Assembly: GCA_036563155.1 (NCBI GenBank)
Contig: DATCMT010000026.1
Coordinates: 7,034-71,033, forward strand
DNA: 64,000 nucleotides
Direction: 5' to 3'
Source of the DNA: Rhodanobacter sp.
GTDB taxonomy: Bacteria > Pseudomonadota > Gammaproteobacteria > Xanthomonadales > Rhodanobacteraceae
Shown: positions 47,428-64,000 of the stretch, one piece after another
Numbering within the stretch: position 1 is the stretch's first letter
Layout of the letters: each line of letters begins with the position of its first letter
Translations under genes and position numbers: made by a program
Notes under the pieces: generated by a model
Database searches by the model: none
What the model was told of the DNA's origin: nothing
Seen by the model: only the letters and a program-made list of their open reading frames with translations

Positions 47428-47722
47428 TCATGGTCGCGACGGGATCTTCAACAGCTGGCCAGGCCGGCTGCGATCCGGATCGGTGAGCTGATCGTGGTTT
47501 GCGTCGAAAATCCGCTTCCACGCACTCGCATTGCCATGGAGGTGCCTGGCGATCTTCGACAAGTTGTCGCCTGCCGCCAGGGCATAGGCAGGCCGTGTCG
47601 GCAGTCGAGCTGACCTGCGACTGCACGTCACCGAAATCGACCCCGGGTGGGGCATCTGGCGCGGTGGACTTCGCCCAGTCCCGCACATCCGAACAATCCG
47701 GTTTGCTGGTCTCGTTGCCCAT
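47428..47722 (-). pseudogene. Frameshifted LysM peptidoglycan-binding protein
   Basis: N-half MGNETSKPDCSDV..DFGDVQSQVSSTAD; LysM (AGDNLSKIARHLHGNASAWKRIFDAN..PDRSRPGQLLKIP) continues in another frame near 47595. Confidence 0.8.
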
Positions 47723-47910
47723 CGCACGCAACTCCGCCCGGGAAGAGAGCGCCAGTGATAACCACGTTGCGGTCAACGGCTTGTGAGTGCGTTTGCGGGG
47801 CGTTCAGCTGGGCAATCTCTCATGCGCAACGATACCGTTCATGGTCGGCCCGATCCCGCTCGCACCACTCCATCGTTATGATGAAAACCACCACATCTCA
47901 CGAGCCTCCC

Positions 47911-48816
47911 ATGTCCGACGATACCCTCAATGCCGACCGCCTCGACGACGTGATACTGGCCCTGTTGTGGGCCAACAGCTTCAAGGAAGAATTCGGCGGT
48001 TACCGCGCCTGGAAATCACTGCCCCGGGACGCACTGGACCGGTTGCATGCCAAGGGCCTTATCGGCAATGCACATGGCCACGCTCACAGCGTCACGCTCG
48101 GTGATGAGGCCTGGTCACGTGGCCAGGCGCTGTTCGAGCAATGGTTCGGCACCGGTGTACCTGCATCCACCAGGCCCGCCACACGAAGCCGGGCCAAGGC
48201 GACAGCCACAGCTGCCGCAAGCGTCCATCAGTTCAAGATCACCCTCGACGGCGTGAAGCCTCCAGTGTGGCGACGCATCCAGCTGCCCACCGACGCCAGC
48301 TTCTGGGACCTGCATTGCGCCATCAACGACGCCATGGGCTGGGAAGACATGCACCTGCACGCGTTTCAGATCGGCGACAAACGCAACGGCATCGACATCG
48401 GCATCCCGATGGAAGACGACATGCCCTGGAACGACACCACCATGCTCGCCGGCTGGGACGTTCCCATTGCCAACCACCTGGACAAGCCCGGCACCCGTTG
48501 CACTTATCTCTACGACTTCGGCGACGACTGGAGTCACAAGGTTGTTCTGGAAGCCATCACCCCACGCGAAGCCAAGGCCAAATACCCCCGCTGCCTCGCC
48601 GGCGCCCGCGCCTGCCCACCCGAAGACTGCGGTGGCATTTATGGTTATACGCGCCTGTGCGACATCCTGAAAAACCCGGCCAAAGCCAACGAGGAAGCCG
48701 AGGAACTGCTCGACTGGCTCGGCGACGACTTCGATCCCGAGGCGTTCGACGCGGGCAAGGTGAAGTTCGGTTCGGCGGCGAGGCGGTTGAAGGCGTTGCG
48801 CGGCAGCATGCGTTGA
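47911..48816 (+). CDS. Fusion of DUF6429-like winged-helix domain and pRiA4b ORF-3 family domain
   Basis: N-terminus LALLW..RAWK..LDRLHAKGLI..SVTL; C-terminus FKITL..PPVWRRI..LHCAINDAMGWEDMHLHAF, YLYDFGDDW, CPPEDCGG. Confidence 0.82.
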   Translation: MSDDTLNADRLDDVILALLWANSFKEEFGGYRAWKSLPRDALDRLHAKGLIGNAHGHAHSVTLGDEAWSRGQALFEQWFGTGVPASTRPATRSRAKATATAAASVHQFKITLDGVKPPVWRRIQLPTDASFWDLHCAINDAMGWEDMHLHAFQIGDKRNGIDIGIPMEDDMPWNDTTMLAGWDVPIANHLDKPGTRCTYLYDFGDDWSHKVVLEAITPREAKAKYPRCLAGARACPPEDCGGIYGYTRLCDILKNPAKANEEAEELLDWLGDDFDPEAFDAGKVKFGSAARRLKALRGSMR

Positions 48817-48932: not shown

Positions 48933-49355
48933 GTGCAACGTCGTCGTTTCCTCATTCACCTGTCCGAGGCACTGGCCGCCTTCGGCGCGCTTCCGGGTGC
49001 AGCGAACGCCAGGCCTCGCGCGGACAAGGCCACGCAAATCCACCTGCAGGACTGTCGCATCGCCGGCGGTCATTACTACGACTGCCCGAGCGTCCTGTCC
49101 GACCTTCGCCCCAGCGATGCGCGGCGGTCTCGCCGCCAACCCGGGAACCCGCACGAAGAACGCGCCATCGAGGTGCTCTGGCACGGCCGCAAACTCGGCT
49201 ACCTGCCGCGTCCGGACAACGCCGCTGCTGCGTCGCTGCTTGATCGCACGCACGACCTTCGCGGCAAAATTTTTGCTGTCGACAATCAGGAAGAAGAGTT
49301 GGAGCCGATCAGGTTACGCGTGTGGATTTACGCCCACCATGGCGACGCACGGTGA
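48933..49355 (+). CDS. Stand-alone HIRAN-domain protein with twin-arginine-like leader
   Basis: MQRRRFL leader; IAGGHYY, PGNPHE..AIEV..KLGYLPR.DN..A.LLD. Confidence 0.75.
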   Translation: MQRRRFLIHLSEALAAFGALPGAANARPRADKATQIHLQDCRIAGGHYYDCPSVLSDLRPSDARRSRRQPGNPHEERAIEVLWHGRKLGYLPRPDNAAAASLLDRTHDLRGKIFAVDNQEEELEPIRLRVWIYAHHGDAR

Positions 49356-49381: not shown

Positions 49382-49828
49382 TCAAGCAGGTCGCTGCATA
49401 TCAAGCAGCGCCATGCCCAACTCGCCCGCGCCCGTGTTGAGCTTCGCATTGAAACAGGCGAACACGAGGTTCGCTGCACCGACCGTTACACACACGCGCT
49501 CGGCGACGGCCAGATGCACACTGTCGTAGGCTCGCAACCCGAAGCGACGCGCCAACGCCGCCGCACGCTGCAACAGCACCTCATCGACACTGATACGCGT
49601 CATCGCCAGCCAGTCCGACTGAAACTTCGTCCACACCACATGGTGATCGGCGGCGGAAATGCGCTGCATCCTTTCCGCCTTGGTCAACGCCGCGGCCATC
49701 TCGGCATAGGCAATCAGGTGGCTGCACGGCGTGACGCCCTCGCGCCCCACCAACTCGACCACCGAACCCCGGCCGACCTCCGGGAGATAGAGGCGTGCCA
49801 GCGCGGAGGTATCGAGATACGCAATCAC
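49382..49828 (-). CDS. vapC: PIN-domain toxin VapC
   Basis: YLDTSAL, YAEM, LRAYDSVHLA; GTGA overlap with upstream antitoxin. Confidence 0.9.
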   Translation of the reverse strand: MIAYLDTSALARLYLPEVGRGSVVELVGREGVTPCSHLIAYAEMAAALTKAERMQRISAADHHVVWTKFQSDWLAMTRISVDEVLLQRAAALARRFGLRAYDSVHLAVAERVCVTVGAANLVFACFNAKLNTGAGELGMALLDMQRPA

Positions 49829-50100
49829 TCCCTGTCTTCCAGCAACAAATCCGTGAAGCTCGGCCCTTCCCCGCGCCAGCCGACCGGCGTGTCCAACCCC
49901 AGGTTCGACACCACGTGGCTCGGTAACACCGCCCAGGACTGGTGTTGCAGCACGTCGGCGGCGGACAAGGACGGCGCCGCGGGAGGCGACAACCGCGCCA
50001 CCACGGTTCCACGAGAGGTCACGGAAATTTCCTCGCCATTGCGCACCCGGCGCAAAACGGCGGAGAGGTTGGCTTTTAGATTGCGGGTGCTGACTTGCAT
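49825..50100 (-). CDS. Phd/YefM-family antitoxin
   Basis: MQVSTRNLKANLSAVLRRVRNGEEISVTSRGTVVARLSP; GGAG RBS. Confidence 0.92.
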   Translation of the reverse strand: MQVSTRNLKANLSAVLRRVRNGEEISVTSRGTVVARLSPPAAPSLSAADVLQHQSWAVLPSHVVSNLGLDTPVGWRGEGPSFTDLLLEDRE

Positions 50101-50115
50101 CGCAAGTCTCCAGAA

Positions 50116-50145
50116 TGTGGTCACATCATTGTTGTTGTGGTCACA
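50116..50145. promoter_or_regulatory. Tandem palindromic operator of the TA operon
   Basis: TGTGGTCACA (TGTG-N2-CACA) at 50116-50125 and 50136-50145, just upstream of the antitoxin RBS. Confidence 0.7.
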
Positions 50146-50369
50146 CAATCAATTTAGTTCAAGAACGTGCGCTGTATGCGGCGGTATCGAACGTCACGCG
50201 CTGCGCAATGCCTGGTCCAGCATCGGCATCGATCGCGTTGCTGCTGCCGTGAGGGTTTGGCGCGGGAAATGCGGTGGTCCGCTGCATGGGGTGCCCTGCT
50301 ATCCAAGAGGCTTCAAAGAGGCCGCGCCAAGTGAACATTGTACTTGGAGTTACGCAGAGCAAGCTCGAT

Positions 50370-50444: not shown

Positions 50445-50639
50445 ATGGTCAACCATCAGCCCCCCTCCACTTTGTGTCGCCCCGCCGTCTCTGTGGTGGT
50501 GCACCTGCCGTACGAAATCGCCGATTGGCTGGCTTCGCAGCCAGACAGACACACATGGGTGACGCAACTCCTCGTCTCTTTTTATCGCCAGCGGCAGCCA
50601 GATCGACCTACGCAGGACGGAGCATCACATGAGCTTTGA
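50445..50639 (+). CDS. Small putative ribbon-helix-helix protein overlapping cas3 start
   Basis: VSVVVHLP-YEIADWLASQ-PDRHTWVTQLLVSFY gives a strand-helix-helix pattern; 11-nt overlap with cas3; RBS weak. Confidence 0.4.
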   Translation: MVNHQPPSTLCRPAVSVVVHLPYEIADWLASQPDRHTWVTQLLVSFYRQRQPDRPTQDGASHEL

Positions 50640-53088
50640 TGCATTCTTTCAGCACGCGACGCGGGTGCCGCGCCTGCCTTACCCCTATCAAACACGCCTG
50701 GCCACGGAGCCGTGGCCGGATGCGCTTCATGTGCCCACGGGCATGGGCAAGACCGCCGCCGTGGTGCTGGCGTGGTTATTCAAACGCGGTCACAGGCACA
50801 GCAACCCGCAGAGCACCCCGGACCCACAGACGCCGCGCAGGCTGGTGATTTGCCTGCCCATGCGTGTGCTGGTTGAGCAGACGGCCGCAGAAGTTCAAGG
50901 CTGGCTCGAATCGCTCGGTCTGCATGGCAAGGTGGGCGATGGCAAGGTGTCCGTGCATGTATTGATGGGCGGCAGCGAAAATGTACGCCATCCTGAATGG
51001 GCCGGTCAGCCGGAAGAAGACGCGATCATCATCGGCACCCAGGACATGCTGCTCTCGCGCGCTCTGATGCGCGGCTACGGCATGAGCCGCTATCAATGGC
51101 CGGTGCATTTCGCCCTGCTGCACAACGATTGCATGTGGGTCTTCGACGAAGTACAGCTGATGGGCGCGGGGCTTCCGACCAGCACGCAACTGGAAGCCTT
51201 CCGTCGCGATACCGGGCTGGCGCCCACCCACGCCAGCCGCAGCCTGTGGGTGTCGGCCACCTTGCACAAGGACTGGCTGGGCACCGTGGATTTCAAACCG
51301 CACCTGGCCACGCTCGCGATTTCCAGCCTGCAAGCCGACGACCGAGCGCAGGAAGTTGTACAACAGCGTTTGAGCGCATCCAAGCGGCTGCACCGGGCGC
51401 AAACCTCGCTCTCGGGTGGCGCCAAGGGCGATATCCAAGACTACGTCGCGTCGCTGGCTGGCGAGATCGTCGGCCAGCATCAAGCTGGTTGCCAGACACT
51501 GGTCATCCTCAACAACGTCGAGCGCGCGCAGCGGTTGCACACCGAGCTTGGCAAACGGCTGGCCGACGTACCACGGTTGCTTTTGCATGCCCGCTTCCGT
51601 GCGGAAGAGAGGCAGAGACTTGAGCGGCAACTTCGTGACCAACCAAATGCTCGCGGCCGCATCATCATCGCCACTCAGGCAATCGAGGCCGGCGTGGATA
51701 TCTCCGGCCGCACACTGTTCACCGAACTCGCGCCGTGGGCGTCGATGGTGCAGCGTTTTGGTCGCTGCAACCGGGACGGCAAACACGACCAGGCAGATGT
51801 GTTCTGGATCGACATCGCTGCCGACGCGGAGAGGCTCGCACGTCCCTATGACAACGTCACGCTGGCTGCCTCGCGCGACACGCTAGCCGCGCTGGAAGAT
51901 GTCGGTCCGACCCACCTGCCGCAGGTGGATGCCAACCGCCCGCTGACCCAGGTGCTGCGGCGGCGTGATTTCCTCGAACTGTTCAACACGGACGCCGACC
52001 TGTCCGGATTTGACGTGGATATCTCACCGTACATCCGCGACAGCGGCATACCGCCGATCCGAGTGTTCTGGCGCCATATCGAAAAGGGAAAACTGGACGC
52101 CATCGACAAACCGCAACACCAGGAACTTTGCCCCGCCTCCATCGGGCAGATCAGCGCCCACTTGGGCAGCAAGCTCAAGGGAGAGTCCCGCAGCGCATGG
52201 CGTTGGGATGTGCTGGATCGCAAGTGGGTTACGGTCCGCGCGGAGCAGGTTCACCCCGGCATGACCCTGCTGTTGAACACCGCGGAAGGCGGTTATAACG
52301 TGGATCTTGGTTTTGTTCCCGCAAGCAACATGCGCGTCGACACGGTCACCGTACAAACAGCCGATGACGAAGCAGACAGCAACGATGGCGACCCGTTGAC
52401 GCAGATCGGTTGCTGGGTATCGCTGCCCCAGCACCTGGGCGATGTCGCCACTGACGCTGCGGCACTATGCCAGTCGCTACACATCGACGCCGCACTGGCA
52501 GCCGCCGTCACCGAGGCTGGGCGTTGGCATGATCTCGGCAAGGCCCACGAAGCATTCCAGAACGCGCTCGAAGACAGTGGTCACGACCCCGACGGTACGC
52601 CGCCGTGGGCCAAGTCAAACGGCCGCGGACGACTACGCTATTTCGTCGAGACGGCCGACGAAAAGCAGCCGCGCAAGCACTTCCGCCACGAGTTGGCCTC
52701 CATGCTGGCGTGGTTGGAACACGGCTCGCGTGACACTCACCACGACCTGATTGCCTATCTGATCGCCGCCCATCACGGCAAAGTACGTATGGGCCTGCGC
52801 ACCCTACCCGGCGAAAGCGAACCCAAGGGAGACCGCGAGAAACTGTTCGCGCGTGGCGTGTGGGACGGCGACCATCTGCCCGCGCTCGCATTCGACGGTC
52901 GTGAGGTGCCGGAGACCACACTGCACCTGGACATCATGCAACTCGGCCGCAGCGAGCGGCAAGGCGCCTCATGGACCGCCCGGACACAGGCCTTGCTCAA
53001 GCAGCATGGTCCGTTCCGGCTGGCCTGGCTGGAAACGCTGGTGCGCATCGCCGACTGGCGCGCCTCAGCACGGGAGGCCAAGCCATGA
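50629..53088 (+). CDS. cas3: Type I-G Cas3 (SF2 helicase with C-terminal HD nuclease)
   Basis: PTGMGKT, FDEVQ, SAT, QRFGRCNR, then LPQHL..HDLGK..RHELAS..AHHGK..IADW. Confidence 0.96.
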   Translation: MSFDAFFQHATRVPRLPYPYQTRLATEPWPDALHVPTGMGKTAAVVLAWLFKRGHRHSNPQSTPDPQTPRRLVICLPMRVLVEQTAAEVQGWLESLGLHGKVGDGKVSVHVLMGGSENVRHPEWAGQPEEDAIIIGTQDMLLSRALMRGYGMSRYQWPVHFALLHNDCMWVFDEVQLMGAGLPTSTQLEAFRRDTGLAPTHASRSLWVSATLHKDWLGTVDFKPHLATLAISSLQADDRAQEVVQQRLSASKRLHRAQTSLSGGAKGDIQDYVASLAGEIVGQHQAGCQTLVILNNVERAQRLHTELGKRLADVPRLLLHARFRAEERQRLERQLRDQPNARGRIIIATQAIEAGVDISGRTLFTELAPWASMVQRFGRCNRDGKHDQADVFWIDIAADAERLARPYDNVTLAASRDTLAALEDVGPTHLPQVDANRPLTQVLRRRDFLELFNTDADLSGFDVDISPYIRDSGIPPIRVFWRHIEKGKLDAIDKPQHQELCPASIGQISAHLGSKLKGESRSAWRWDVLDRKWVTVRAEQVHPGMTLLLNTAEGGYNVDLGFVPASNMRVDTVTVQTADDEADSNDGDPLTQIGCWVSLPQHLGDVATDAAALCQSLHIDAALAAAVTEAGRWHDLGKAHEAFQNALEDSGHDPDGTPPWAKSNGRGRLRYFVETADEKQPRKHFRHELASMLAWLEHGSRDTHHDLIAYLIAAHHGKVRMGLRTLPGESEPKGDREKLFARGVWDGDHLPALAFDGREVPETTLHLDIMQLGRSERQGASWTARTQALLKQHGPFRLAWLETLVRIADWRASAREAKP

Positions 53089-53594
53089 AGCTGGCCGCGT
53101 TCGAAACCGTGGCCAAGGCGCTGGACACCGCTCAGGTGCGCTATCTGGTGGCCGGTGGCCTGGCCGTCAACGCGCACGGCTACATCCGCTTTACCGCCGA
53201 CATCGACATGGTCATCGCGCTCGACGCGGACAACATCGCCCGCGCCTTCAAGGCACTGTCGGAGATCGGCTGTACACCTTCGGTTCCCATCACCGCTGAC
53301 ATGTTTGCCAAACCGGAACAACGACACCAGTGGATGAAAGAAAAGGGCATGCAGGTGCTGAACTTTCACAGCAATGCCCATCCGGGAACCTCGGTGGACG
53401 TGTTCGTGCATGAGCCCTTCGATTTCGCGCAAGAGTACGCCGCTGCCATGCAAGGCGAACTCCTGCCAGGCATCACCGTGCGATTCGTTTCCATCCCTAC
53501 CCTGATCCGCATGAAGCAAGTCGCCGGACGCGCCCGCGACCTCGACGACATCGAGCACCTGCGTTGGTTGCAGAAGGACAGCGAACATGACTGA
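53085..53594 (+). CDS. Pol-beta-superfamily nucleotidyltransferase (DUF6036-like)
   Basis: YLVAGGLAVNAHGYIRFTADID (GG + DxD), VDVF, LIRMKQVAGRARDLDDI; GGAGG RBS; overlaps cas3 stop and cas8g start. Confidence 0.88.
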   Translation: MKLAAFETVAKALDTAQVRYLVAGGLAVNAHGYIRFTADIDMVIALDADNIARAFKALSEIGCTPSVPITADMFAKPEQRHQWMKEKGMQVLNFHSNAHPGTSVDVFVHEPFDFAQEYAAAMQGELLPGITVRFVSIPTLIRMKQVAGRARDLDDIEHLRWLQKDSEHD

Positions 53595-55974
53595 GCGCCG
53601 CGACGATATCGACTGGGAGAAAACCACCTTCGACGGCAGCCGCCGCGAGCAACTGCGCCGTGGACAGGCCATGAGCCTTCGCCAGCGGCTGGAAGCGCTG
53701 GATCAACTCACCGACTTGGCCGCCCGCATGCAAACCATGCCACGACATGGCGACTATGCCCGTCGCCGCGAAACTTCGGCCAGCGTGCACGAAGAACGGA
53801 GTCGTTATGCGGAGGGCGCCTCCATCCACACCCTGATTCTCGAAGGCTGCACGCCGACACCACTGGCAAGCTACCTGAAAGCACTCGGCATACTGCGTCT
53901 GGTCGCAGAGCAGGCCGATCCCGATACCTGCGGATACTGGATGGATGACGTGTTCACCTTGCAGACCACGCAGGATCGCGAAGCGCTGCAAGCTTTCTTT
54001 CTCGACCGGTATCAACCGACCCCTATCCTCGCGCCGTGGAATGGTGGCAGCGGATTTTACCCAGGAGACAATCAATCCGGCGTGGAGCCGGTAAGTCGCA
54101 GTGCCACACCTCGCCTTGCCACGTTGCGCGAAACCGTTGCCGCTATCAGGAAGGTGCTTGCACGATCCAACATCGAAGAAAAGCCTGACCTCGATACAAA
54201 GCTGGTGCTGCTTCGACACTTGCGTAACCACTTGGACGACAGTGCGCTGGTCTGGCTTGACGCCGCCACCTTGCTATCGGACGACAAGCCGCTGTATCCA
54301 CCTCTTTTGGGAACCGGAGGCAACGATGGGCGACTCGACTTCACCAATAACTTCCTGCAACGGCTAGTCAGCCTGATCGACTGCGATAGCGGTGAACCAA
54401 CGCTTCTGGCGAGGCAACAACTTCCAGAGAGCCTGTTCGGTGTCGCCACACCTGGGCAAGTCTCCGCTGCCATCGGCCAGTTTTCCCCCGGCGGCGCGGG
54501 TGGCCCCAACGGCACCACCGGATTCGACAGCAAATCCGGCTTCAATCCGTGGGACTTCGTCTTCATGCTGGAAGGCGCCGTACTGTTCGCGGCTGCCGCG
54601 ACCCGCCGTCTGGAATCGGGCGACACATCCGCACTCAGCTATCCGTTCACGGTGCGCACCACGGGAAGCAGCGACGGAAGCACGGCGCCGGACGACGAGA
54701 GCGCCGCGCGCGCGGAAATATGGATGCCACTGTGGGATCGTCCAACATCGCTGGATGAACTGCGGACCCTGTTGTCAGAAGGCCGCGTTACCCTGCACCG
54801 GCGCCCTGCACGCGACGGCCTAGACTTCGTGCGCGCCGTATCGCAACTGGGGGTTCAGCGCGGCATCCGTTCCTTTCAGCGCTATGGCTTCCTGATGCGA
54901 TCCGGCAAGGCGTATCTGGCCACGCCGTTGAACCGCATTCTGGTGGAACGCAATCCGGCCGCCGATCTGATCAATGAACTCGACACCCATTACTGGTTGC
55001 AACGCTTCCGCTCTCTGGCGCGGCGCAAGGAGGCCCCGGCCCGGTTACGCAGTCTGGTACGTCGCCTTGAGAGCGCCCTCTTCGATCTGTCGCGCTTTTC
55101 CGATCCACGCTTTGTGCAGCAGGTGCTGATCGTACTGGGGCAGGCGCAAGGCTATCTGGCTTCCAGCCCCGGCGCCCGCGAAAATTGCCCACCGGTTCCG
55201 CGCTTGAGCGTTGCCTGGAGCATCGCCGCCGACGATCGGAGCGCGACGTTCAGAATTTCCGCAGCACTGGCCGGCCTGCATCTGCAACCGGACGATGACG
55301 CCAAGCGGCCCTCCATGCCCATGGCCGTGCATTTCGCGCCCATCGACCCGGACGGCAGAAGCGGTTGGCCCAAGGATCCGAATTCAGCTGCCATGGTCTG
55401 GCATGCGGGCGACCTGAGCCGCAACCTCCATGCCGTCGCACAGCGACGGTTGCTGGATGCCCTGCGCGATGGCGATGTCGGCAAACCGTTCGCGCATTTT
55501 GCCACCGCACCACTGGTGCACATTGCCGAGTGGCTGGCCTCGCCCGCCATGGACACGCAAGTCGATGCCTTGCTGCGTGGCTTGGTACTGGCACGCATAC
55601 CACGCGGCTTCGCCGGCAAGGCACCTACCGCCACGCCATTGCCGGTCACCTTCGCCGCGCTGAAGCCATTGTTCTGCACCGAGCAGCAATTGCGCGATTG
55701 CGGGCTGCTGGCCACGGACCTGCGCCTTCCGCTGGAACCATCGATGCTCAAGCGCCTGTGGCTTGGCTCCGCCGACGCCATGCGGTATGCCGCCCGGCGC
55801 CTGCTCGCTGCCGGGCTGCATGTCGATACCAGCAACATCGACATGACCGCGGTTGATTCCCGCCGTTTGCTGGCAGCCCTGTTGGTTCCCATCACTAACG
55901 ACGATCTGAAACGGCTGTTGAAACCCCTGCAACCGTCCACTCGTGACAACGAACCTGAACTCGCTACCGCCTGA
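53587..55974 (+). CDS. cas8g: Cas8g (Csx17) with a 79-aa N-terminal extension
   Basis: From residue ~80: LEGCTPTPLASYLKALGILRLVAEQAD, PWNGGSGFY, LLGTGGNDGRLDFTNNF, NPWDFVFMLEGA, EIWMPLW; preceded in frame by an unrelated helical segment. Confidence 0.92.
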   Translation: MTERRDDIDWEKTTFDGSRREQLRRGQAMSLRQRLEALDQLTDLAARMQTMPRHGDYARRRETSASVHEERSRYAEGASIHTLILEGCTPTPLASYLKALGILRLVAEQADPDTCGYWMDDVFTLQTTQDREALQAFFLDRYQPTPILAPWNGGSGFYPGDNQSGVEPVSRSATPRLATLRETVAAIRKVLARSNIEEKPDLDTKLVLLRHLRNHLDDSALVWLDAATLLSDDKPLYPPLLGTGGNDGRLDFTNNFLQRLVSLIDCDSGEPTLLARQQLPESLFGVATPGQVSAAIGQFSPGGAGGPNGTTGFDSKSGFNPWDFVFMLEGAVLFAAAATRRLESGDTSALSYPFTVRTTGSSDGSTAPDDESAARAEIWMPLWDRPTSLDELRTLLSEGRVTLHRRPARDGLDFVRAVSQLGVQRGIRSFQRYGFLMRSGKAYLATPLNRILVERNPAADLINELDTHYWLQRFRSLARRKEAPARLRSLVRRLESALFDLSRFSDPRFVQQVLIVLGQAQGYLASSPGARENCPPVPRLSVAWSIAADDRSATFRISAALAGLHLQPDDDAKRPSMPMAVHFAPIDPDGRSGWPKDPNSAAMVWHAGDLSRNLHAVAQRRLLDALRDGDVGKPFAHFATAPLVHIAEWLASPAMDTQVDALLRGLVLARIPRGFAGKAPTATPLPVTFAALKPLFCTEQQLRDCGLLATDLRLPLEPSMLKRLWLGSADAMRYAARRLLAAGLHVDTSNIDMTAVDSRRLLAALLVPITNDDLKRLLKPLQPSTRDNEPELATA

Positions 55975-56994
<1,020 letters not shown>

Positions 56995-56996
56995 TC

Positions 56997-58544
56997 ATGC
57001 TGGCTATCCGTTTTCTTTTCCCCACCGGCCGGTATCACGCGACCCCGTGGGGGCGGCACGTCAACGAGGCCGATGTGGAATGGCCACCCTCGCCGTGGCG
57101 TCTGCTGCGCGCGCTGGTTGCCACCTGGCATCGCAAACTCGACCCGATCCGCTATCCCAGGATGCAACTGGCTGCGCTGATCGAACGCTTGAGCGAAGCC
57201 CTCCCGGTATACCGGTTGCCACCCGCCGTGCGCGCCCACACGCGTCATTACATGCCGGTGCGTGAAGGCAGCAAGGACAAACCGGTCCTGATCTTCGACG
57301 CCTTCGTCCATATGCAGCCGGATGCCGAACTCATCATGGCATGGCCGGACCTTGCGCTCGGCGATAGCGACGGCGAACTTCTGCACGCCCTGCTGGATGG
57401 CCTTAGTTTTCTGGGCCGCGCCGAAAGCTGGGTCGAAGCGTCGGCGCTGGATCGCTGGCAGGGCGAACCCAACTGCGTGCCGTCCGAACTGTCCATGGAC
57501 ATGCGTACCGGTGAGGCATTGGAGCCGGTGCGGGTGATCGCCCCCTTGTCGGTTAGCGCCTGGCAGTCCTGGCGCCAGAGTTTCATCGCCGGAACCGACT
57601 GGGACGCCATGACCCACAAGCCGCGCGAACAACTGCAAGCCACCTTGCCCGAGGCGCTGCTCGAGGCCATCAGTCTGGACACGGCAGACTTGCAGGCAGT
57701 CGGCTGGAGCCGGCCACCGTCAGCGCAATTCGTGACCTACCAACGATCCATGAGCTGCTTCTCGCCGAGTGCAACCATGCGTCCATCACGTCCGCCTACT
57801 TCGGCTCACAGCGTACGCCTGGCCCTGCAAGGCAAACCGCTGCCGCGCATCGAAGACGCCGTACGCATCGGTGAACTGATACGCCGCGCTGCGCTCAAGT
57901 CCGCGGACAAGCTTGGAATCCCGGTTCCACCGGTGCTTTCCGGCCACGATCTGCCTGCCGGGAATTGCCATGCCCATGCGTTCTTCCTACCGGAAGACGC
58001 CGATAACGACGGGCATATCGACCACATCCTTGTGTACGCAAGGGATGGCCTCGATGCCAACGCGATTGCCGCACTTGCCGAGGTTCATTTTCTCTGGCAA
58101 CGCGATGGCGGCAAATGGCGCATCCTGTTCGAAGGCGCCTTGCGCGGCAGCGACCCAGCCTCCCGTTACGCAGCTACAAGCCGTATCTGGGAATCGGCCA
58201 CGCCCTATCTTCACCCATGGCATGCGAAAAGTGCCTTCGGTTATGCCGAACAGATTCGCCGTGAATGCCGCCTGCGCGGCCTGTCAGAGCCGCAGGTCGA
58301 GACTCTACCAACCATCACGATCAACGGTCGGCAGCGTCGGTCAATCCATTTTTATCGGTTTCGCAACAAACGTGGCTTGCAGCAGCCGGATCGCCAAGGC
58401 TGCCTTCTGCGCCTGACTTTCCCGCACCCCGTCGCCGGTCCTCTGGCCCTGGGCTTCGGCTGCCATTTCGGGCTTGGCCTGTTCGTACCATTGTCCACTG
58501 TGGGTGCCTCGTCGCCGAACCCGGCCAATTCAGCAACAGCATAG
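56997..58544 (+). CDS. csb2: Csb2 (Cas5/Cas6 fusion)
   Basis: GRYHATPWGRHVNEADVEWPPSPWRLLRAL, LGRAESW, HAHAFFLPED, WESATPY, GPLALGFGCHFGLGLF. Confidence 0.95.
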   Translation: MLAIRFLFPTGRYHATPWGRHVNEADVEWPPSPWRLLRALVATWHRKLDPIRYPRMQLAALIERLSEALPVYRLPPAVRAHTRHYMPVREGSKDKPVLIFDAFVHMQPDAELIMAWPDLALGDSDGELLHALLDGLSFLGRAESWVEASALDRWQGEPNCVPSELSMDMRTGEALEPVRVIAPLSVSAWQSWRQSFIAGTDWDAMTHKPREQLQATLPEALLEAISLDTADLQAVGWSRPPSAQFVTYQRSMSCFSPSATMRPSRPPTSAHSVRLALQGKPLPRIEDAVRIGELIRRAALKSADKLGIPVPPVLSGHDLPAGNCHAHAFFLPEDADNDGHIDHILVYARDGLDANAIAALAEVHFLWQRDGGKWRILFEGALRGSDPASRYAATSRIWESATPYLHPWHAKSAFGYAEQIRRECRLRGLSEPQVETLPTITINGRQRRSIHFYRFRNKRGLQQPDRQGCLLRLTFPHPVAGPLALGFGCHFGLGLFVPLSTVGASSPNPANSATA

Positions 58545-58651: not shown

Positions 58652-59368
58652 GTGCCACACTTGATGGGCAGTCCGTTGGACAACCCGCTCCCTTCAGGCG
58701 AACAGCGCAGCGACGCGATCCGCCTCGTCATGGATGACCGCGAATGTCGGGGCCCCATGCCTGCGGCCATCGCGGCGTGCGGTGCGTTTGCTGTGGAGGT
58801 GCGACGCCTTCCGGTAGGCGACTACTGCGTGGATGACGCGTTGCTGTTCGAACGCAAGACGCTGCTCGACCTGGCGGCCTCGATCAAGGACGGCCGGTTG
58901 TTCGATCAGGCGCTACGCCTGACCCATGCGGAACTACGCAGCGCACTGATTCTTGAAGGCAGCTCACGTGATCTGGTTACCAGCGGCATGCGCATGGAAT
59001 CCATCCGCGGCGCGCTGGTGAATGTTGCGCTGTTCATCAGCCTGCCCGTGCTGCGCACACGCGATGCGATGGATACGGCACGAACGTTGGGTTATGCCGT
59101 ACGACAGCGACGTGCGCTGGTCAACGGCGGATTGCCGCGCCACGGTTGCCGACCGAAGGGCAAGGCGGCATTGCAATCCTACGTGTTGCAGGGGCTTCCA
59201 GGCATTGGGCCGCGTCGCGCGGCGCGCCTGATCCAGCGATTCGGCAGCATCGAGGCAGCCATGGCGGCAGACATGGATGCGCTGGCCGAAGTAGACGGCA
59301 TTGGCGCACACACCGCGCGCAGGCTGCGCTGGTGTGTGGAAGAAGCGCCCGCGGCATTTGCCGTTTGA
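58652..59368 (+). CDS. XPF/ERCC4-family structure-specific nuclease with (HhH)2 domain
   Basis: DDRE, LPVGDY, FERKT..D...SIKDGRLFDQ, LILEG; two HhH motifs GLPGIGP and VDGIG. Confidence 0.92.
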   Translation: MPHLMGSPLDNPLPSGEQRSDAIRLVMDDRECRGPMPAAIAACGAFAVEVRRLPVGDYCVDDALLFERKTLLDLAASIKDGRLFDQALRLTHAELRSALILEGSSRDLVTSGMRMESIRGALVNVALFISLPVLRTRDAMDTARTLGYAVRQRRALVNGGLPRHGCRPKGKAALQSYVLQGLPGIGPRRAARLIQRFGSIEAAMAADMDALAEVDGIGAHTARRLRWCVEEAPAAFAV

Positions 59369-59411: not shown

Positions 59412-59781
59412 TCACACCCGATACAGCACCATCACCTCAACCTTCTCCCCACCCACCTTGAAATCCCGCGTATTCCGCGTAACCAGCACCAGCCCATGCT
59501 GCACAGTCACCGCCGCCTGCAACGCATCGGGCGACTTCCAATGCTCGCTGCAATGCAGGGAGGCGGCAAGGTCAACCATCTCGCTGGTGATCGGCAGGTG
59601 CGGAAATACATCGGGCAGCTCGTGCGCCAACGGCTCGGTGCGAACGGTGAAACCGGCGAGCACTCCGGCGCGGGTGATGACGGAGATGGCGCGCCCACTG
59701 TTGTATTTGGCCAGGAAGGTGGTGGCGGCTTCGACGCTGTTGAAGTGGTCGATCAGGATGACCGAATCGAGCGGGTATCTC
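59412..59781 (-). pseudogene. Inactivated VapC/PIN toxin
   Basis: ARYPLDSVILIDHFN..ITRAGVL..KSPDALQAA..LVTRNTRDF; expected start codon reads GCG, an in-frame TGA lies just upstream, conserved Glu appears as Gly. Confidence 0.8.
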
Positions 59782-60137: not shown

Positions 60138-61856
60138 ATGGAACCGAAGCAGGGGGACTTGCAGCTGCCATTCCCGGAGCTGGGCGGCGACCAGCCGCTG
60201 ATTCCGGTGCGCATGCTCAATGAGCACGTGTATTGCCCGCGGCTGGCGTATCTGGAATGGGTGCAGGGCGAGTGGGCCGATTCCGCCGACACCGTCGATG
60301 GCCGACACCGGCACCGACGCGTTGACAAGCCTTCCGGAGACCTGCCTGCAGCTGACAAGGCGCGCGAAGAGAGCGCCGAGATCCACGCCCGTTCGGTCAC
60401 GCTGTCGTCCAACACCATCGGTCTGATCGCCAAGCTCGACCTGATCGAGGGCGAAGGCGATACCGTCACGCCAGTCGATTACAAGCGCGGCAAGCGGCCG
60501 CACACGCCACGCGGCGTGTACGATCCCGAACGCGTGCAACTGTGCGCACAAGGCCTGCTTCTGCGCGAACACGGCTATGTGTGCGACGAAGGCGCGATCT
60601 ACTACGTGGCGAGCAAGGAGCGCGTCGCCGTGCCCTTCGACGACGAGCTGATCGCACTGACCCGCAACGCGATTGCCGAGCTGCGTGCGATGGCCGCCGG
60701 CGGGCGTATTCCCGACCCGCTGGTGGACAGCCCCAAATGCCCACGCTGCTCGCTGGTGACGATCTGCCTGCCCGACGAGGTGCAATACCTGCATCGTGCC
60801 GAGCTGGCACCGCGCCCACTGGCCGTTCCGCATCACGAGGCACTACCCCTGTACATTCAGCAGTTCAACGCCAAGCTGGCAAAGAAGGGTGAAGTGCTGG
60901 AGGTCAGCAAGGATGATCAGGTGCTGGCCAAGGCCCGCATCGGCGAGGTCTCGCAGGTGGTGTTGATGGGGAATGTCTACATCACCTCGCCGTGCCTGGG
61001 CGAGCTGATGCAGCGGAACATCCCTGTCACCTGGCACAGCTATGGCGGCTGGTTCTACGGCCACACCGTCGGCAACGGCCACAAAAACGTGGAGCTGCGC
61101 ACCGCGCAGTACCGCACCAGCTTCAACGACGCCGCCTGCCTGCGCGTCGCGCGAGCGCTGGTGGCCGCAAAGATCGCCAACAGCCGCACCCAGTTGCGGC
61201 GCAACTGGAAACTCGAAAAAAAGCCGGAGCGCCTGTTGGCCGACATGAAGCGCATTCAACGGCAAAGCGAGAATGCCGAGAACCTGCAGACCCTGCTTGG
61301 CATCGAAGGCAACGCCGCCGCGCACTACTTCGAGAACTTCCGCAACACGCTCAAGCCCACGACCGTCGAAGACGAAGCGCTGCTGTCGTTCGATTTCACC
61401 CGGCGCAACCGGCGCCCACCGACCGATCCGGTCAATGCGATGCTGTCATTCGCCTATACCCTGCTGGCGCGGACGCTGACGGTGACACTGCAAGCGGTGG
61501 GTTTCGATCCGTTTCGCGGCTTCTACCACCAGCCGCGTTACGGTCGCCCCGCGCTCGCCCTGGACCTGATGGAGCCCTTCCGCCCGTTGCTTGCCGATTC
61601 GGTTGTGATCCAGGTGATCAACAACGGCGAGGTGCACCCCAGCGACTTCGTCAGCGCCGCCGGCAGCGTCAACCTCACCCCCGATGGACGCAAGCGATTC
61701 ATTGCCGCGTTCGAGCGCAGGCTCAGCCATGAGGTCACCCACCCCATGTTCGGTTATCGCCTGAGCTATCGCCGCCTGCTGGAACTGCAGGCGCGGCTGC
61801 TGGGGCGATTCCTGCTGGGCGAGCTGGACGACTACCCCAACTTCACCACCCGATGA
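60138..61856 (+). CDS. cas1: Cas4-Cas1 fusion
   Basis: Cas4: YCPRL, KLDL, DYKRG, CPRCSL..C; Cas1: GIEGNAAAHYF, NAMLSFAY, GFYH, LDLMEPFRP. Confidence 0.97.
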   Translation: MEPKQGDLQLPFPELGGDQPLIPVRMLNEHVYCPRLAYLEWVQGEWADSADTVDGRHRHRRVDKPSGDLPAADKAREESAEIHARSVTLSSNTIGLIAKLDLIEGEGDTVTPVDYKRGKRPHTPRGVYDPERVQLCAQGLLLREHGYVCDEGAIYYVASKERVAVPFDDELIALTRNAIAELRAMAAGGRIPDPLVDSPKCPRCSLVTICLPDEVQYLHRAELAPRPLAVPHHEALPLYIQQFNAKLAKKGEVLEVSKDDQVLAKARIGEVSQVVLMGNVYITSPCLGELMQRNIPVTWHSYGGWFYGHTVGNGHKNVELRTAQYRTSFNDAACLRVARALVAAKIANSRTQLRRNWKLEKKPERLLADMKRIQRQSENAENLQTLLGIEGNAAAHYFENFRNTLKPTTVEDEALLSFDFTRRNRRPPTDPVNAMLSFAYTLLARTLTVTLQAVGFDPFRGFYHQPRYGRPALALDLMEPFRPLLADSVVIQVINNGEVHPSDFVSAAGSVNLTPDGRKRFIAAFERRLSHEVTHPMFGYRLSYRRLLELQARLLGRFLLGELDDYPNFTTR

Positions 61857-61895: not shown

Positions 61896-62186
61896 ATGGA
61901 CGAACATCTGTACCTGGTAACCTACGATATTCGCGACGACAAGCGCTGGCGCCGCGTCTTCAAGACCATGAAGGGTTTCGGCGAATGGCTGCAACTTTCA
62001 GTATTCCAGTGCCGCATGAGCCAACGTCGGCATGCCGAGATGCTGGAACTGCTCGACGGCATCATCCTGCATCGCACCGATGCCCTGCTGATCATCGACC
62101 TCGGCCCTGCCGACAAGGTCAAACCCCGCGTGGTCAGCCTCGGTGACAAATTCGAACCCGTCGCGCGCGAGCCGATCATCGTGTGA
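61896..62186 (+). CDS. cas2: Cas2
   Basis: YLVTYDIRDDKRWRRVFK..GFG..LQLSVFQC. Confidence 0.97.
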   Translation: MDEHLYLVTYDIRDDKRWRRVFKTMKGFGEWLQLSVFQCRMSQRRHAEMLELLDGIILHRTDALLIIDLGPADKVKPRVVSLGDKFEPVAREPIIV

Positions 62187-62415
62187 CGGCCGCCCACCAT
62201 CGCCCACCCTCTTTCGCCCCTCCCACGCGAGCGCTCCGGTGACGCCGCAAAACCCGGCCACCTCTCGCATCACCATGCTCTTTGAAAATCCGATAGTTAG
62301 CCGCCACCGTTGCCACCCGGCATCGCGCGCGCTAGCCTGCCTCGCGCTTGTGCCGACCACCCCTCGCACATTCCCGTCAAACCGCCATACCGCACAAGGA
62401 CTTGCGGGAGGGGCG
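62187..62415 (+). promoter_or_regulatory. CRISPR leader
   Basis: Non-coding gap between cas2 and the first repeat, containing GCGAG..CTCGC inverted motifs. Confidence 0.7.
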
Positions 62416-64000
62416 GTGTTCCGCAGCAGTTCGCTGCGGCCTCATTGAAGCTCCTGCGGCCGTGCGTTGCGCGCAGCCACCGCCGTCGTGTTCCGCAGCA
62501 GTTCGCTGCGGCCTCATTGAAGCCGACGTACTTGTTGCCTTTCTTGATGCACGGGACGGTGTTCCGCAGCAGTTCGCTGCGGCCTCATTGAAGCCGCCAT
62601 GTTGGTCAGCCATGCGGTCATCAATGCCTCGTGTTCCGCAGCAGTTCGCTGCGGCCTCATTGAAGCAACCCACTGCATTTGATCTACCTGCCGCGCGCAG
62701 CGGCGTGTTCCGCAGCAGTTCGCTGCGGCCTCATTGAAGCTACTACTACGGCGAGACGCCGCCGTCCGAGTTGCGGGTGTTCCGCAGCAGTTCGCTGCGG
62801 CCTCATTGAAGCTATCTGTGGGCGTGCAACCTGTACGTGTCCGCTTGCGGTGTTCCGCAGCAGTTCGCTGCGGCCTCATTGAAGCAGGTACTCCTTGAGT
62901 GAGTGGTGTTGGGGGAGGTCGGTGTTCCGCAGCAGTTCGCTGCGGCCTCATTGAAGCCGGATCAGCAGCAAGGCGCCGGCACGCAACGTACTGAGTGTTC
63001 CGCAGCAGTTCGCTGCGGCCTCATTGAAGCGCGCAGGCCTGGAAGATGGCCGCCTGTTGAAGGCCCGTGTTCCGCAGCAGTTCGCTGCGGCCTCATTGAA
63101 GCAAGGTCAAGGGCGTATCGACGTACTACAACAAGGACGGGTGTTCCGCAGCAGTTCGCTGCGGCCTCATTGAAGCACTTCCCATCGCTATTCTCCTTTG
63201 TCGCCTTTGCCGTTGTGTTCCGCAGCAGTTCGCTGCGGCCTCATTGAAGCTACGTCCACGCGGTGACCGGCGTACTACCACCAAGCGTGTTCCGCAGCAG
63301 TTCGCTGCGGCCTCATTGAAGCCGCCACGGCTACGTGTCGGGCGAAGCGGCTGTGTGGGTGTTCCGCAGCAGTTCGCTGCGGCCTCATTGAAGCGCGCTG
63401 GCCTCCGGCGTCAACACCCGCTCGATGGGCGTGTTCCGCAGCAGTTCGCTGCGGCCTCATTGAAGCGCTTCGTTCTGCGCGATGCGGGGGATGCTGGGTG
63501 CAGTGTTCCGCAGCAGTTCGCTGCGGCCTCATTGAAGCGGCGGCACGGGTGGCGAAACTGACGAGAAACGGCTTGTGTTCCGCAGCAGTTCGCTGCGGCC
63601 TCATTGAAGCGGCTCGGGCCGCGTCCCAGCCGGCGTGTCGATCGTGTGTTCCGCAGCAGTTCGCTGCGGCCTCATTGAAGCGGATAGCGCGCCGGTCTAC
63701 TCCGCGACGCTGATTGTCGTGTTCCGCAGCAGTTCGCTGCGGCCTCATTGAAGCTCGCTGGTGTAGGCGGTATCCCAGTTGCTGGCCGTGGTGTTCCGCA
63801 GCAGTTCGCTGCGGCCTCATTGAAGCATGATCGAAGCCGACGAATCGATCAACGTCCGCGACGTGTTCCGCAGCAGTTCGCTGCGGCCTCATTGAAGCGC
63901 CGACTCCACTCGCGCGGTTAACGATGCCTACGGTGTGTTCCGCAGCAGTTCGCTGCGGCCTCATTGAAGCCAGCCTCGCCTGCTGACCGTAACCGGTGGC
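62416..64000 (+). CRISPR. Type I-G CRISPR array, 22 identical 36-bp repeats, 21 full spacers (35-38 nt) plus one truncated
   Basis: Repeat GTGTTCCGCAGCAGTTCGCTGCGGCCTCATTGAAGC (stem CCGCAGC/GCTGCGG, 5-nt loop, ATTGAAGC end) from 62416-62451 to 63935-63970; probably continues past the window. Confidence 0.99.

Follow-up and report, generated by a model that had tools for sequence, protein, structure and literature searches.

Among described toxin-antitoxin (TA) modules, the closest to the system considered here is MenAT1 of M. tuberculosis (MenT1, Rv0078A; MenA1, Rv0078B; structures 8AN4, 8AN5 and 8RR5). The functional residues of the nucleotidyltransferase MenT1 are T39, which serves as the phospho-acceptor, D41, D43, K137 and D152 (PMC10435456, PMC11375011). 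TA elements have also been tied to CRISPR-Cas immunity, and the known links, CreTA and related modules, operate at the RNA or transcriptional level; CreTA renders the effector addictive or provides it with a guard against anti-CRISPRs (PMC9458426; bioRxiv 10.1101/2024.01.05.574328). In type I-G systems, Cas3 is stably bound to Cascade through Cas8g (PMC9638904). Here we analyze a 64,000-nucleotide (nt) stretch of Rhodanobacter sp. DNA (assembly GCA_036563155.1, contig DATCMT010000026.1, positions 7,034 to 71,033 of the forward strand; hereafter the window) that carries a complete type I-G locus. Between its cas3g and cas8g genes lies an additional gene, at 53085-53594 (+), that encodes a minimal nucleotidyltransferase of 169 amino acids (NT; P0001), and its small partner protein is fused to Cas8g. 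Our verdict, read from sequence, is that NT and its partner constitute a putative TA-like module of the MenT type that has a new partner family and is physically built into the effectors of type I CRISPR systems.

Searched against the PDB, the NT family profile matched MenT1 (8AN4) with an E-value of 2e-10 over residues 5-162, that is, almost the full length. The AlphaFold2 model of NT has a predicted local distance difference test score (pLDDT) of 89.7 and a predicted template modelling score (pTM) of 0.84. In a Foldseek search with this model, the five best PDB matches were all MenT1 (8AN5, 8AN4 and 8RR5; probability 1.00), with template modelling (TM) scores of 0.60-0.70 under either normalization (TMq 0.62-0.70) and 8an5_B as the best fold match (TM 0.64-0.70). 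TM1012, ANT(2'')-Ia and LnuA ranked below them. We rejected an antibiotic nucleotidyltransferase of the ANT(2'')-Ia or Lnu type, as PF10706 (ANT(2'')-like) covers residues 8-73 only and scores below its cut-off (19.8 vs 21), and as these folds rank below MenT1 with TM-scores of 0.55-0.60.

Each functional residue of MenT1 has a counterpart in NT. T39, D41, D43, K137 and D152 correspond to T37 (codon 53193-53195), D39 (53199-53201), D41 (53205-53207), K144 (53514-53516) and D155 (53547-53549), respectively, all on the + strand; the NT segment R-F-T-A-D-I-D aligns to R-F-T-R-D-V-D of MenT1, and the hidden Markov model (HMM) alignment pairs K144 and D155 with K137 and D152. The motif G24-G25...T37-x-D39-x-D41 is intact (G24-G25 codons 53154-53159, +), and so are D105 (53397-53399, +), K144 and D155. 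These residues supply Pol-beta motifs I and II (G24-G25 and D39-I-D41), the carboxylate of motif III (D105) and motif IV (K144 and D155). In a 28-sequence alignment T37, D39, D41, D105, K144 and D155 are invariant; in a wider 50-sequence alignment T37, K144 and D155 remain invariant and D39, D41 and D105 are at least 90% conserved, with G24-G25 invariant in both. An NCBIfam scan of NT returned no match, PADLOC gave weak AbiEii matches, and some database entries call NT homologues 'AbiEii/AbiGii toxin family'. Based on the profile and the predicted fold, we file NT as a probable MenT1-like member of the MenT/AbiEii/DUF6036 superfamily that narrowly misses the curated HMM thresholds.

The NT gene is tightly interlocked with both of its neighbors. 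Its ATG (53085-53087) overlaps the cas3g TGA (53086-53088) in an ATGA, a GGGAGG ribosome-binding site lies 7 nt 5' of the ATG (53072-53077, +), and its own TGA (53592-53594) overlaps the ATG at 53587 of a 795-amino-acid Cas8g open reading frame (ORF) within the 8-nt sequence ATGACTGA (53587-53594, +), which is preceded by AAGGA 8 nt upstream. This overlap recurs in relatives and is predicted to couple translation of NT to that of the partner-Cas8g ORF. A longer in-frame alternative for the NT ORF starts at 52971; we prefer the start at 53085 because some 1350 homologues of 168-169 amino acids begin with MKLAAF. A scan for an operon promoter or terminator found nothing above the shuffled background, and we found no RNA-seq runs containing window sequence. 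An earlier sequence-only reading of this DNA had described an intact Pol-beta nucleotidyltransferase with an ATGA junction, an 8-nt overlap, a strong ribosome-binding site and an intact GG..DxD motif. All of these were confirmed in the sequence, and the assignment itself agrees with the intact motifs and the MenT1-like profile and predicted fold. Of the three families that it had named, MenT/AbiEii fits both profile and fold, MntA lacks its HEPN partner here, and CD-NTases find no support in fold or context.

Close examination of the Cas8g ORF revealed the second half of the module. TIGR04113 matches this ORF only from residue 84, and the Cas8g structure solved from T. sulfidiphilus (8B2X chain M, 720 amino acids) aligns to its residues 79-790. 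Because these alignments begin at residues 84 and 79, the window Cas8g has about 75 extra N-terminal residues. The first 52 of them (53587-53742, +) are predicted to form a two-helix hairpin and are homologous to stand-alone ORFs of 57-90 amino acids located 3' of NT elsewhere; we refer to this domain as the partner. In the linker to the Cas8g core follows a tail motif, [VIL]xExxxxY (V67-HEERSR-Y74; 53785-53808, +). From these alignments, the N-terminal ~75 residues of the window Cas8g comprise a whole partner, hairpin and VxExxxxY tail included. The partner consensus reads IDWxxTTWEGSRRxQLRRxxxLxLRERLxALE. Across the 17 Csx17 loci found in 401 sampled genomes from the same class, the Cas8g extension occurs only in the two that have NT upstream.

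At the junction between partner and Cas8g core, we noticed an out-of-frame ATG at 53807 that is preceded by GGAG, and a GGAGG at 53811-53815, 8 nt before an in-frame ATC at 53824; both may be relics of an ancestral cas8g start. We rejected a second Cas8g isoform made from an internal start, as neither the GGAGG/ATC 53824 nor the ATG 53807 is conserved in relatives. An apparent tblastn extension of other Cas8g proteins into the window linker was likewise discarded as spurious, since those genes begin 4-10 residues before the L.GC.P.PLA motif.

Elsewhere the same two proteins occur as separate genes. In a Chromatiales metagenome-assembled genome (L001), another I-G locus carries an NT, 61% identical to that of the window, between its csb2 and cas4/cas1 genes. 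This NT overlaps a stand-alone partner ORF of 82 amino acids that shares 45% identity with residues 6-67 of the window Cas8g; the Cas8g of this locus has no N-terminal extension. In a sample of 80 metagenome loci (NT identity 47-71%), found with an alignment narrower than the 50-sequence one, a homologous partner ORF lies directly 3' of NT in about 74. In nearly all of these, the two ORFs share nucleotides at the NT stop and the partner start, commonly 4-17 nt, and the partner usually measures 57-90 amino acids. A distant NT-partner pair (35% identity) lies inside a BrnT/BrnA toxin-antitoxin island. Judged by this gene arrangement, NT and the partner form an obligatory, translationally coupled two-gene module.

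The module is repeatedly found in, or fused to, type I cas operons. All placed homologues of 73-90% identity, which come from Dokdonella, Thioalkalivibrio, another metagenome-assembled genome (536 kb contig) and several metagenome contigs, share both the overlaps and the order cas3-NT-(partner-Cas8g). The window clade comprises 10 rows of a maximum-likelihood tree and has an SH-aLRT support of 97; all 10 are cas-linked. A second Cas8g fusion (L067) falls elsewhere in the tree, and this fusion therefore arose at least twice. Cas3 is another recipient. In L076, a type I-C Cas3, followed by Cas5c, Cas8c, Cas7c, Cas4 and Cas1, carries the partner at its N-terminus; in L106 the recipient is a Cas3g adjoining Cas8g2, and in L075 it is an I-E-like Cas3. 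Directly upstream of an I-E cas3-cse1 operon lies a stand-alone NT-partner pair (L074), and a single-chain NT-partner protein lies upstream of an I-F operon (L130). The partner is also fused to Fic-like domains (L115, L138, P0157) and to proteins of about 300 amino acids that end in a SEC-C metal-binding motif (L070:1402-2640, L096:8494-9615). About 3.6 kb further downstream of the SEC-C fusion in L096, we observed an I-G cas3-cas8g pair.

The wider family has more varied surroundings. Among the 401 genomes, 17 carry Csx17 and 31 carry an NT homologue (threshold E <= 1e-15). About 10 have a homologue of at least 50% identity, and in the three of these that also possess a type I-G system, NT lies inside the I-G locus (3/3); the remaining homologues at this level are free-standing. 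One of the three (G249) has NT-partner copies on both flanks of its I-G locus together with Fic-like modules. Its 11.8-kb contig (L132, G249:C155) carries, upstream of cas3, an NT fragment with a partner, an intact NT with a partner, Fic-like pieces and a partner fragment, and, after csb2, a stop-interrupted NT with a partner, which suggests repeated insertion and decay of such modules around I-G operons. In a neighbor census of 35 longer metagenome loci, Cas3 domains were present in 6; WYL, YhcG-type nuclease and TPR-repeat matches occurred in 3-4 ORFs each, and the rest were diverse, mostly housekeeping. One 69-71%-identical pair lies in a WYL/PIN/Fic-like defense island that has no cas genes. 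A plasmid collection yielded two distant matches, and a phage collection yielded none. Judged by its genomic contexts, the wider family behaves like a mobile TA-type pair that has been repeatedly captured by, or fused to, type I effector genes.

These results bear on the sequence-only reading in several ways. Among the results that it had named as refuting its case were homologues at random positions with no recurrent cas linkage; for the window clade, every member that we checked lies in a cas locus, so that its case survives this check. Its placement of NT outside the canonical I-G gene set agrees with the 17 Csx17-bearing genomes: NT occupies the cas3-cas8g junction in two, 15 have no NT there, and one further genome carries NT copies elsewhere in its I-G locus. 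The T. sulfidiphilus model locus also has no NT gene, and in the locus of the I-G structural study, Cas3 and Cas8g have consecutive accession numbers and only toxin-antitoxin pairs and an xpf-like gene are mentioned (PMC9638904). Overall, we find its interpretation partly supported: the picture of an intact, selected and cas-linked nucleotidyltransferase held. It had missed that the partner half is fused to Cas8g, that the wider family is mostly free-standing and that the same module heads I-C, I-E and I-F operons.

Substitution rates indicate that NT is under constraint. The ratio of nonsynonymous to synonymous substitution rates (dN/dS) of NT is 0.09, 0.13 and 0.14 against relatives of 90%, 84% and 80% identity, respectively, and that of the first 52 partner codons is 0.06-0.11; both are similar to or below the values of the flanking cas3 and cas8g segments. 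At deep divergence, the dN of NT (0.16-0.17) is two to three times lower than that of cas3 (0.35) and cas8g (0.49-0.57). By these comparisons, NT is the most conserved protein of the operon and is under strong purifying selection, and it is no decaying insert. Selection on NT had earlier been argued from the decay of nearby VapC modules, which is weak support because one VapC is intact; the dN/dS values of 0.09-0.14 speak for it directly.

A different fate befell NT where it became joined to the partner in a single chain. In such fusions (P0122, P0272-P0279, P0133), D105 is lost in 10 of 10 and D39 also in 9 of 10; most have lost D39 and/or D41, and T37, K144 and D155 are kept. Both of the single-chain fusions that could be placed adjoin cas operons. 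One reading of this pattern is that an NT with the partner joined to it in cis no longer needs catalysis, or that catalysis would then be dangerous, which would be consistent with NT being a toxin.

We are highly confident in the joint description, namely a MenT1-like NT in a two-gene module, its partner fused to Cas8g, purifying selection and recurrent fusions to cas genes. These features suggest a growth-arrest switch that would be physically tied to the CRISPR machinery. NT would be a growth-arresting enzyme which, by analogy with MenT1, would add nucleotides to tRNA 3' ends. The partner domain would bind NT and keep it silent; it may cover the active site, or it may trigger auto-phosphorylation of T37, as MenA1 does with MenT1. 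With the partner built into Cas8g, NT would ride on Cas8g and hence on Cascade and Cas3. NT would escape and halt translation once Cas8g is lost, degraded or perturbed; the cause could be loss of the gene, an anti-CRISPR or, possibly, engagement of a target. In consequence, the cell would be addicted to the effector genes and/or would hold an anti-anti-CRISPR or abortive response in reserve. Toxicity, the substrate, neutralization of NT by the partner and the release trigger are the parts of this model that we infer, and the partner is called an antitoxin by pure inference. The functional model in all its steps is tentative and at best an even bet; a MenT-like toxin checked by an antitoxin-like domain on Cas8g is the best overall explanation, with a probability of about 0.5.

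Several observations weigh against this explanation. Searched against the PDB, the partner profile retrieved no MenA1 chain (its best match, a designed coiled coil, has an E-value of 0.049), and against Pfam it matched no family. In an AlphaFold2 model of a natural NT-partner fusion, the partner is predicted with moderate confidence (pLDDT ~70-77). On the side of NT, PF19502 (DUF6036) and PF08843 (AbiEii) both stay just below their cut-offs (23.3 vs 23.6 and 20.0 vs 22.5, respectively). The toxin gene comes first and the partner lies downstream, unlike the order menA1-menT1. A nonsense mutation inside cas8g leaves the N-terminal partner intact, so that a simple 'addiction to cas8g' is leaky. 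Furthermore, the well-studied T. sulfidiphilus I-G system works without NT (PMC9638904), and cas genes are absent from the surroundings of many relatives at 47-70% identity.

An alternative is that NT and its partner are a selfish passenger, an ordinary mobile TA pair that landed in a defense island, with the Cas8g fusion a tolerated accident of overlapping genes and the module without a role in CRISPR function. Type I-G loci are indeed rich in TA inserts (Phd-VapC, MazE-PIN, RHH-PemK; PMC9638904), many family members are free-standing in varied contexts, and most I-G systems have no NT gene. An accident hardly explains, however, that the partner became fused in frame several times independently, to Cas8g as well as to I-C, I-E-like and I-G Cas3 proteins, nor that the Cas8g fusion stayed in frame while the Cas8g core fell to 37-44% identity. 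The three class-sample genomes with both a close homologue and a type I-G system, all of which hold the homologue inside the I-G locus, argue in the same direction. We consider the passenger explanation unlikely.

The tail motif raises the alternative that NT modifies protein rather than tRNA. It would nucleotidylylate the tyrosine of the partner tail, Y74 in Cas8g and its equivalent in the Cas3-fusion tails, and thereby switch the effector, in the way that MntA polyadenylylates a HepT tyrosine. In line with this idea, [VIL]xExxxxY occurs at fixed spacing in a flexible tail in all aligned Cas8g fusions (window, L006/L007, L009, L011, L026, L067), in two Cas3 fusions (L076, L106) and in some stand-alone partners, and the other occupant of the cas3-cas8g junction, Fic/DOC, belongs to a protein AMPylase family. 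Yet the motif occurs in only 10 of the 71 partner ORFs that are complete in the metagenome sample, which makes it dispensable for core pairing, and the closest characterized relative acts on tRNA and self-modifies the very threonine that is conserved in NT (PMC11375011). Such regulatory modification seems to us quite improbable.

Less probable still is a role of NT in tailing nucleic acids, in which it would extend crRNA (CRISPR RNA), prespacers or nicked target DNA during interference or adaptation. The Pol-beta fold is related to terminal transferases, which appear among the lower-ranking fold matches, and NT would be tethered to the DNA-handling Cas8g or Cas3. Free-standing pairs outside any cas context do not fit this role, the inactivated NT-partner fusions beside cas operons argue that catalysis is dispensable there, and I-G interference and adaptation work without NT (PMC9638904, PMC6547450). 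Finally, we discount almost entirely a CD-NTase-like second-messenger synthase or an MntA-type AMPylating antitoxin, with which NT shares only the Pol-beta GG...DxD motif, since NT is a 169-amino-acid single-lobe enzyme, no CD-NTase is among the top 50 fold matches, no nucleotide-sensor domain was found among the scanned window neighbors, and the partner is a predicted two-helix hairpin with neither an Rx4-6H motif nor a HEPN Pfam match.

The junction between cas3 and cas8g also harbors a second type of enzyme in other genomes of the class. In 5 of the 17 Csx17-bearing genomes (L020, L023, L024, L025, L027), Cas3g has a C-terminal extension of about 260 amino acids at this position, and the three extensions that we scanned against Pfam match the Fic/DOC domain (29.5-44.8 bits vs a cut-off of 24). 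Fic-like modules also occur beside NT-partner pairs (including L132:1469-2958), and in L138, L115 and P0157 they are joined to the partner itself. One position in I-G operons is thus used by two different transferases of toxin type, which is consistent with toxicity of NT. Over the Cas3g-Fic linker, in another frame, we noticed a conserved ORF of about 60-75 amino acids with the consensus MDWKQxIxRWRALSPxEQRRLRLRxIPRxVAxSMAFEGEPVD (L020:675-965; L023:4219-4515, - strand; L024:666-968; L025:651-950; L027:649-924). Its SxxxEG motif resembles the inhibitory helix of VbhA-type Fic antitoxins, a hint at the level of the motif only. The linker ORF had no Pfam or PDB match and may reflect dual coding or a mis-read frame; as a homologue of the NT partner it was rejected (hhalign probability 5%).

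The locus that surrounds NT is a complete type I-G system by NCBIfam and Pfam assignments. Upstream of NT lies cas3g (50629-53088, +; 819 amino acids), a type I-G helicase-nuclease (TIGR02621, 816 bits; Pfam DEAD, Cas3-like_C_2 and Cas3_HD). Downstream, the Cas8g1/Csx17 core extends from residue 79 to the end of the ORF (53821-55974, +; TIGR04113, 726 bits over residues 84-782; residues 6-714 of 8B2X_M align to 79-790) and is followed by csb1/cas7g (55990-56994, +; TIGR02570, PF09617), csb2, a Cas5-Cas6 fusion (56991-58544, +; TIGR02165, 217 bits), a cas4g/cas1g fusion (60138-61856, +; NF049935, 836 bits) and cas2 (61896-62186, +; assigned from HMM libraries). The CRISPR array (62415-63970, +) has a 36-nt repeat, GTGTTCCGCAGCAGTTCGCTGCGGCCTCATTGAAGC, with a period of about 72 nt and at least 21 units, and runs to the window end.

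Several accessory genes accompany these core components. Between csb2 and cas4g/cas1g is a gene for an ERCC4/XPF-(HhH)2 nuclease (58652-59368, +; Pfam ERCC4, E 1.5e-19). We observed a related HhH fragment in the same position in L011 and a full ERCC4 gene in the P0003 locus, and the T. sulfidiphilus I-G paper reports the same 'xpf-like' gene between csb2 and cas4-1 as uncharacterized (PMC9638904). Of the two VapC modules nearby, both of which had earlier been taken as decayed or attenuated, the Phd-VapC pair just upstream of cas3 (49382-50148, -) consists of intact ORFs with a Pfam PIN match. The other, a PIN/VapC remnant between the ERCC4 gene and cas4/cas1 (59412-59663, -), is indeed truncated and retains only the C-terminal half (model positions 60-115). 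Relatives carry MazE-PIN or RHH-PemK between csb2 and cas4/cas1, and we therefore regard this position as a toxin-antitoxin insertion hotspot in I-G loci. Further upstream of the cas operon are a HIRAN-domain gene (48933-49355, +; E 3.8e-11) and a DUF6429 plus pRiA4b ORF-3-like gene (47647-48816, +; E 3e-61). Upstream of cas3, HIRAN is seen again in L011, L131 and the P0003 locus, and WYL-WCX regulators recur upstream in L009, L011, L128 and L131.

In a broader reading, the partner would serve type I CRISPR-Cas systems generally as an adaptor, a 'tripwire' at the protein level, which docks a MenT-like, tRNA-modifying toxin and releases it when the effector is inhibited, destroyed or engaged. 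This reading would span partners fused to Cas8g (I-G), fused to Cas3 (I-C, I-E-like and I-G) or encoded just upstream (I-E and I-F). We find it, in both mechanism and span, somewhat unlikely. If it were true, type I systems, which target DNA, would possess a growth-arrest arm of their own, similar to the collateral responses of types III and VI, as well as a defense against anti-CRISPRs, and other I-G loci would have reached an analogous, second solution with the Fic/DOC domain that Cas3g carries at this junction.

A toxin's partner covalently built into Cas8g or Cas3, repeatedly and in at least three type I subtypes, would, if confirmed in function, represent a new way of coupling adaptive immunity to growth arrest. 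It could stabilize the cas genes by addiction, or it could provide an anti-anti-CRISPR or abortive response in reserve. The MenT toxin family would reach well beyond mycobacteria and include a new partner family, and an extra, so far unseen subunit would be predicted on some Cascade complexes. The system is compact, comprising a 169-amino-acid enzyme and a domain of about 75 residues. In the literature that we searched, we found no description of a nucleotidyltransferase in I-G loci or of a Cas-fused partner of this kind.

Set against known systems, NT most resembles MenAT1, its best match by both profile and fold. The two enzymes are similarly small (169 amino acids in NT vs 196 in MenT1), NT keeps all functional residues, and an adjacent gene encodes a small helical protein of about 70 amino acids. 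They differ in that NT is only ~20% identical to MenT1 and in that its partner is unrelated in sequence to MenA1 and, here, is fused to a CRISPR effector subunit. With AbiEii/AbiEi (DUF1814; a type IV/VII TA and abortive infection system), NT shares the nucleotidyltransferase motifs I-IV, including the K...R.RD..D motif IV, and a putative defense role. By contrast, AbiEii has two lobes and about 100 additional amino acids, its antitoxin AbiEi, encoded upstream, is a large winged helix-turn-helix protein, and the Pfam AbiEii score of NT lies under the cut-off. The HEPN-MNT pair HepT/MntA likewise combines a minimal nucleotidyltransferase with a second gene in a TA-like arrangement, and the tyrosine of the partner tail would be a possible modification site. 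There, however, the nucleotidyltransferase is the antitoxin and its partner a HEPN RNase, whereas the NT partner is not a HEPN protein.

Two further systems resemble the proposed mechanism rather than the enzyme. CapRel, a fused toxin-antitoxin, illustrates an antitoxin-like domain that can be covalently attached to another protein and whose release would be the trigger, and NT-partner single chains do exist. In this family, though, the single-chain fusions have lost catalytic aspartates, and active NTs keep the partner on a separate chain. Finally, as in CreTA and the CRISPR-repressed toxins of types I-B and I-F, a putative toxin resides in a type I cas locus, and the silencing proposed for NT would depend on Cascade. 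CreTA silencing is transcriptional and relies on a crRNA-like RNA; here, silencing would instead be exerted by a protein domain on Cas8g or Cas3, and the toxin would be a protein enzyme.

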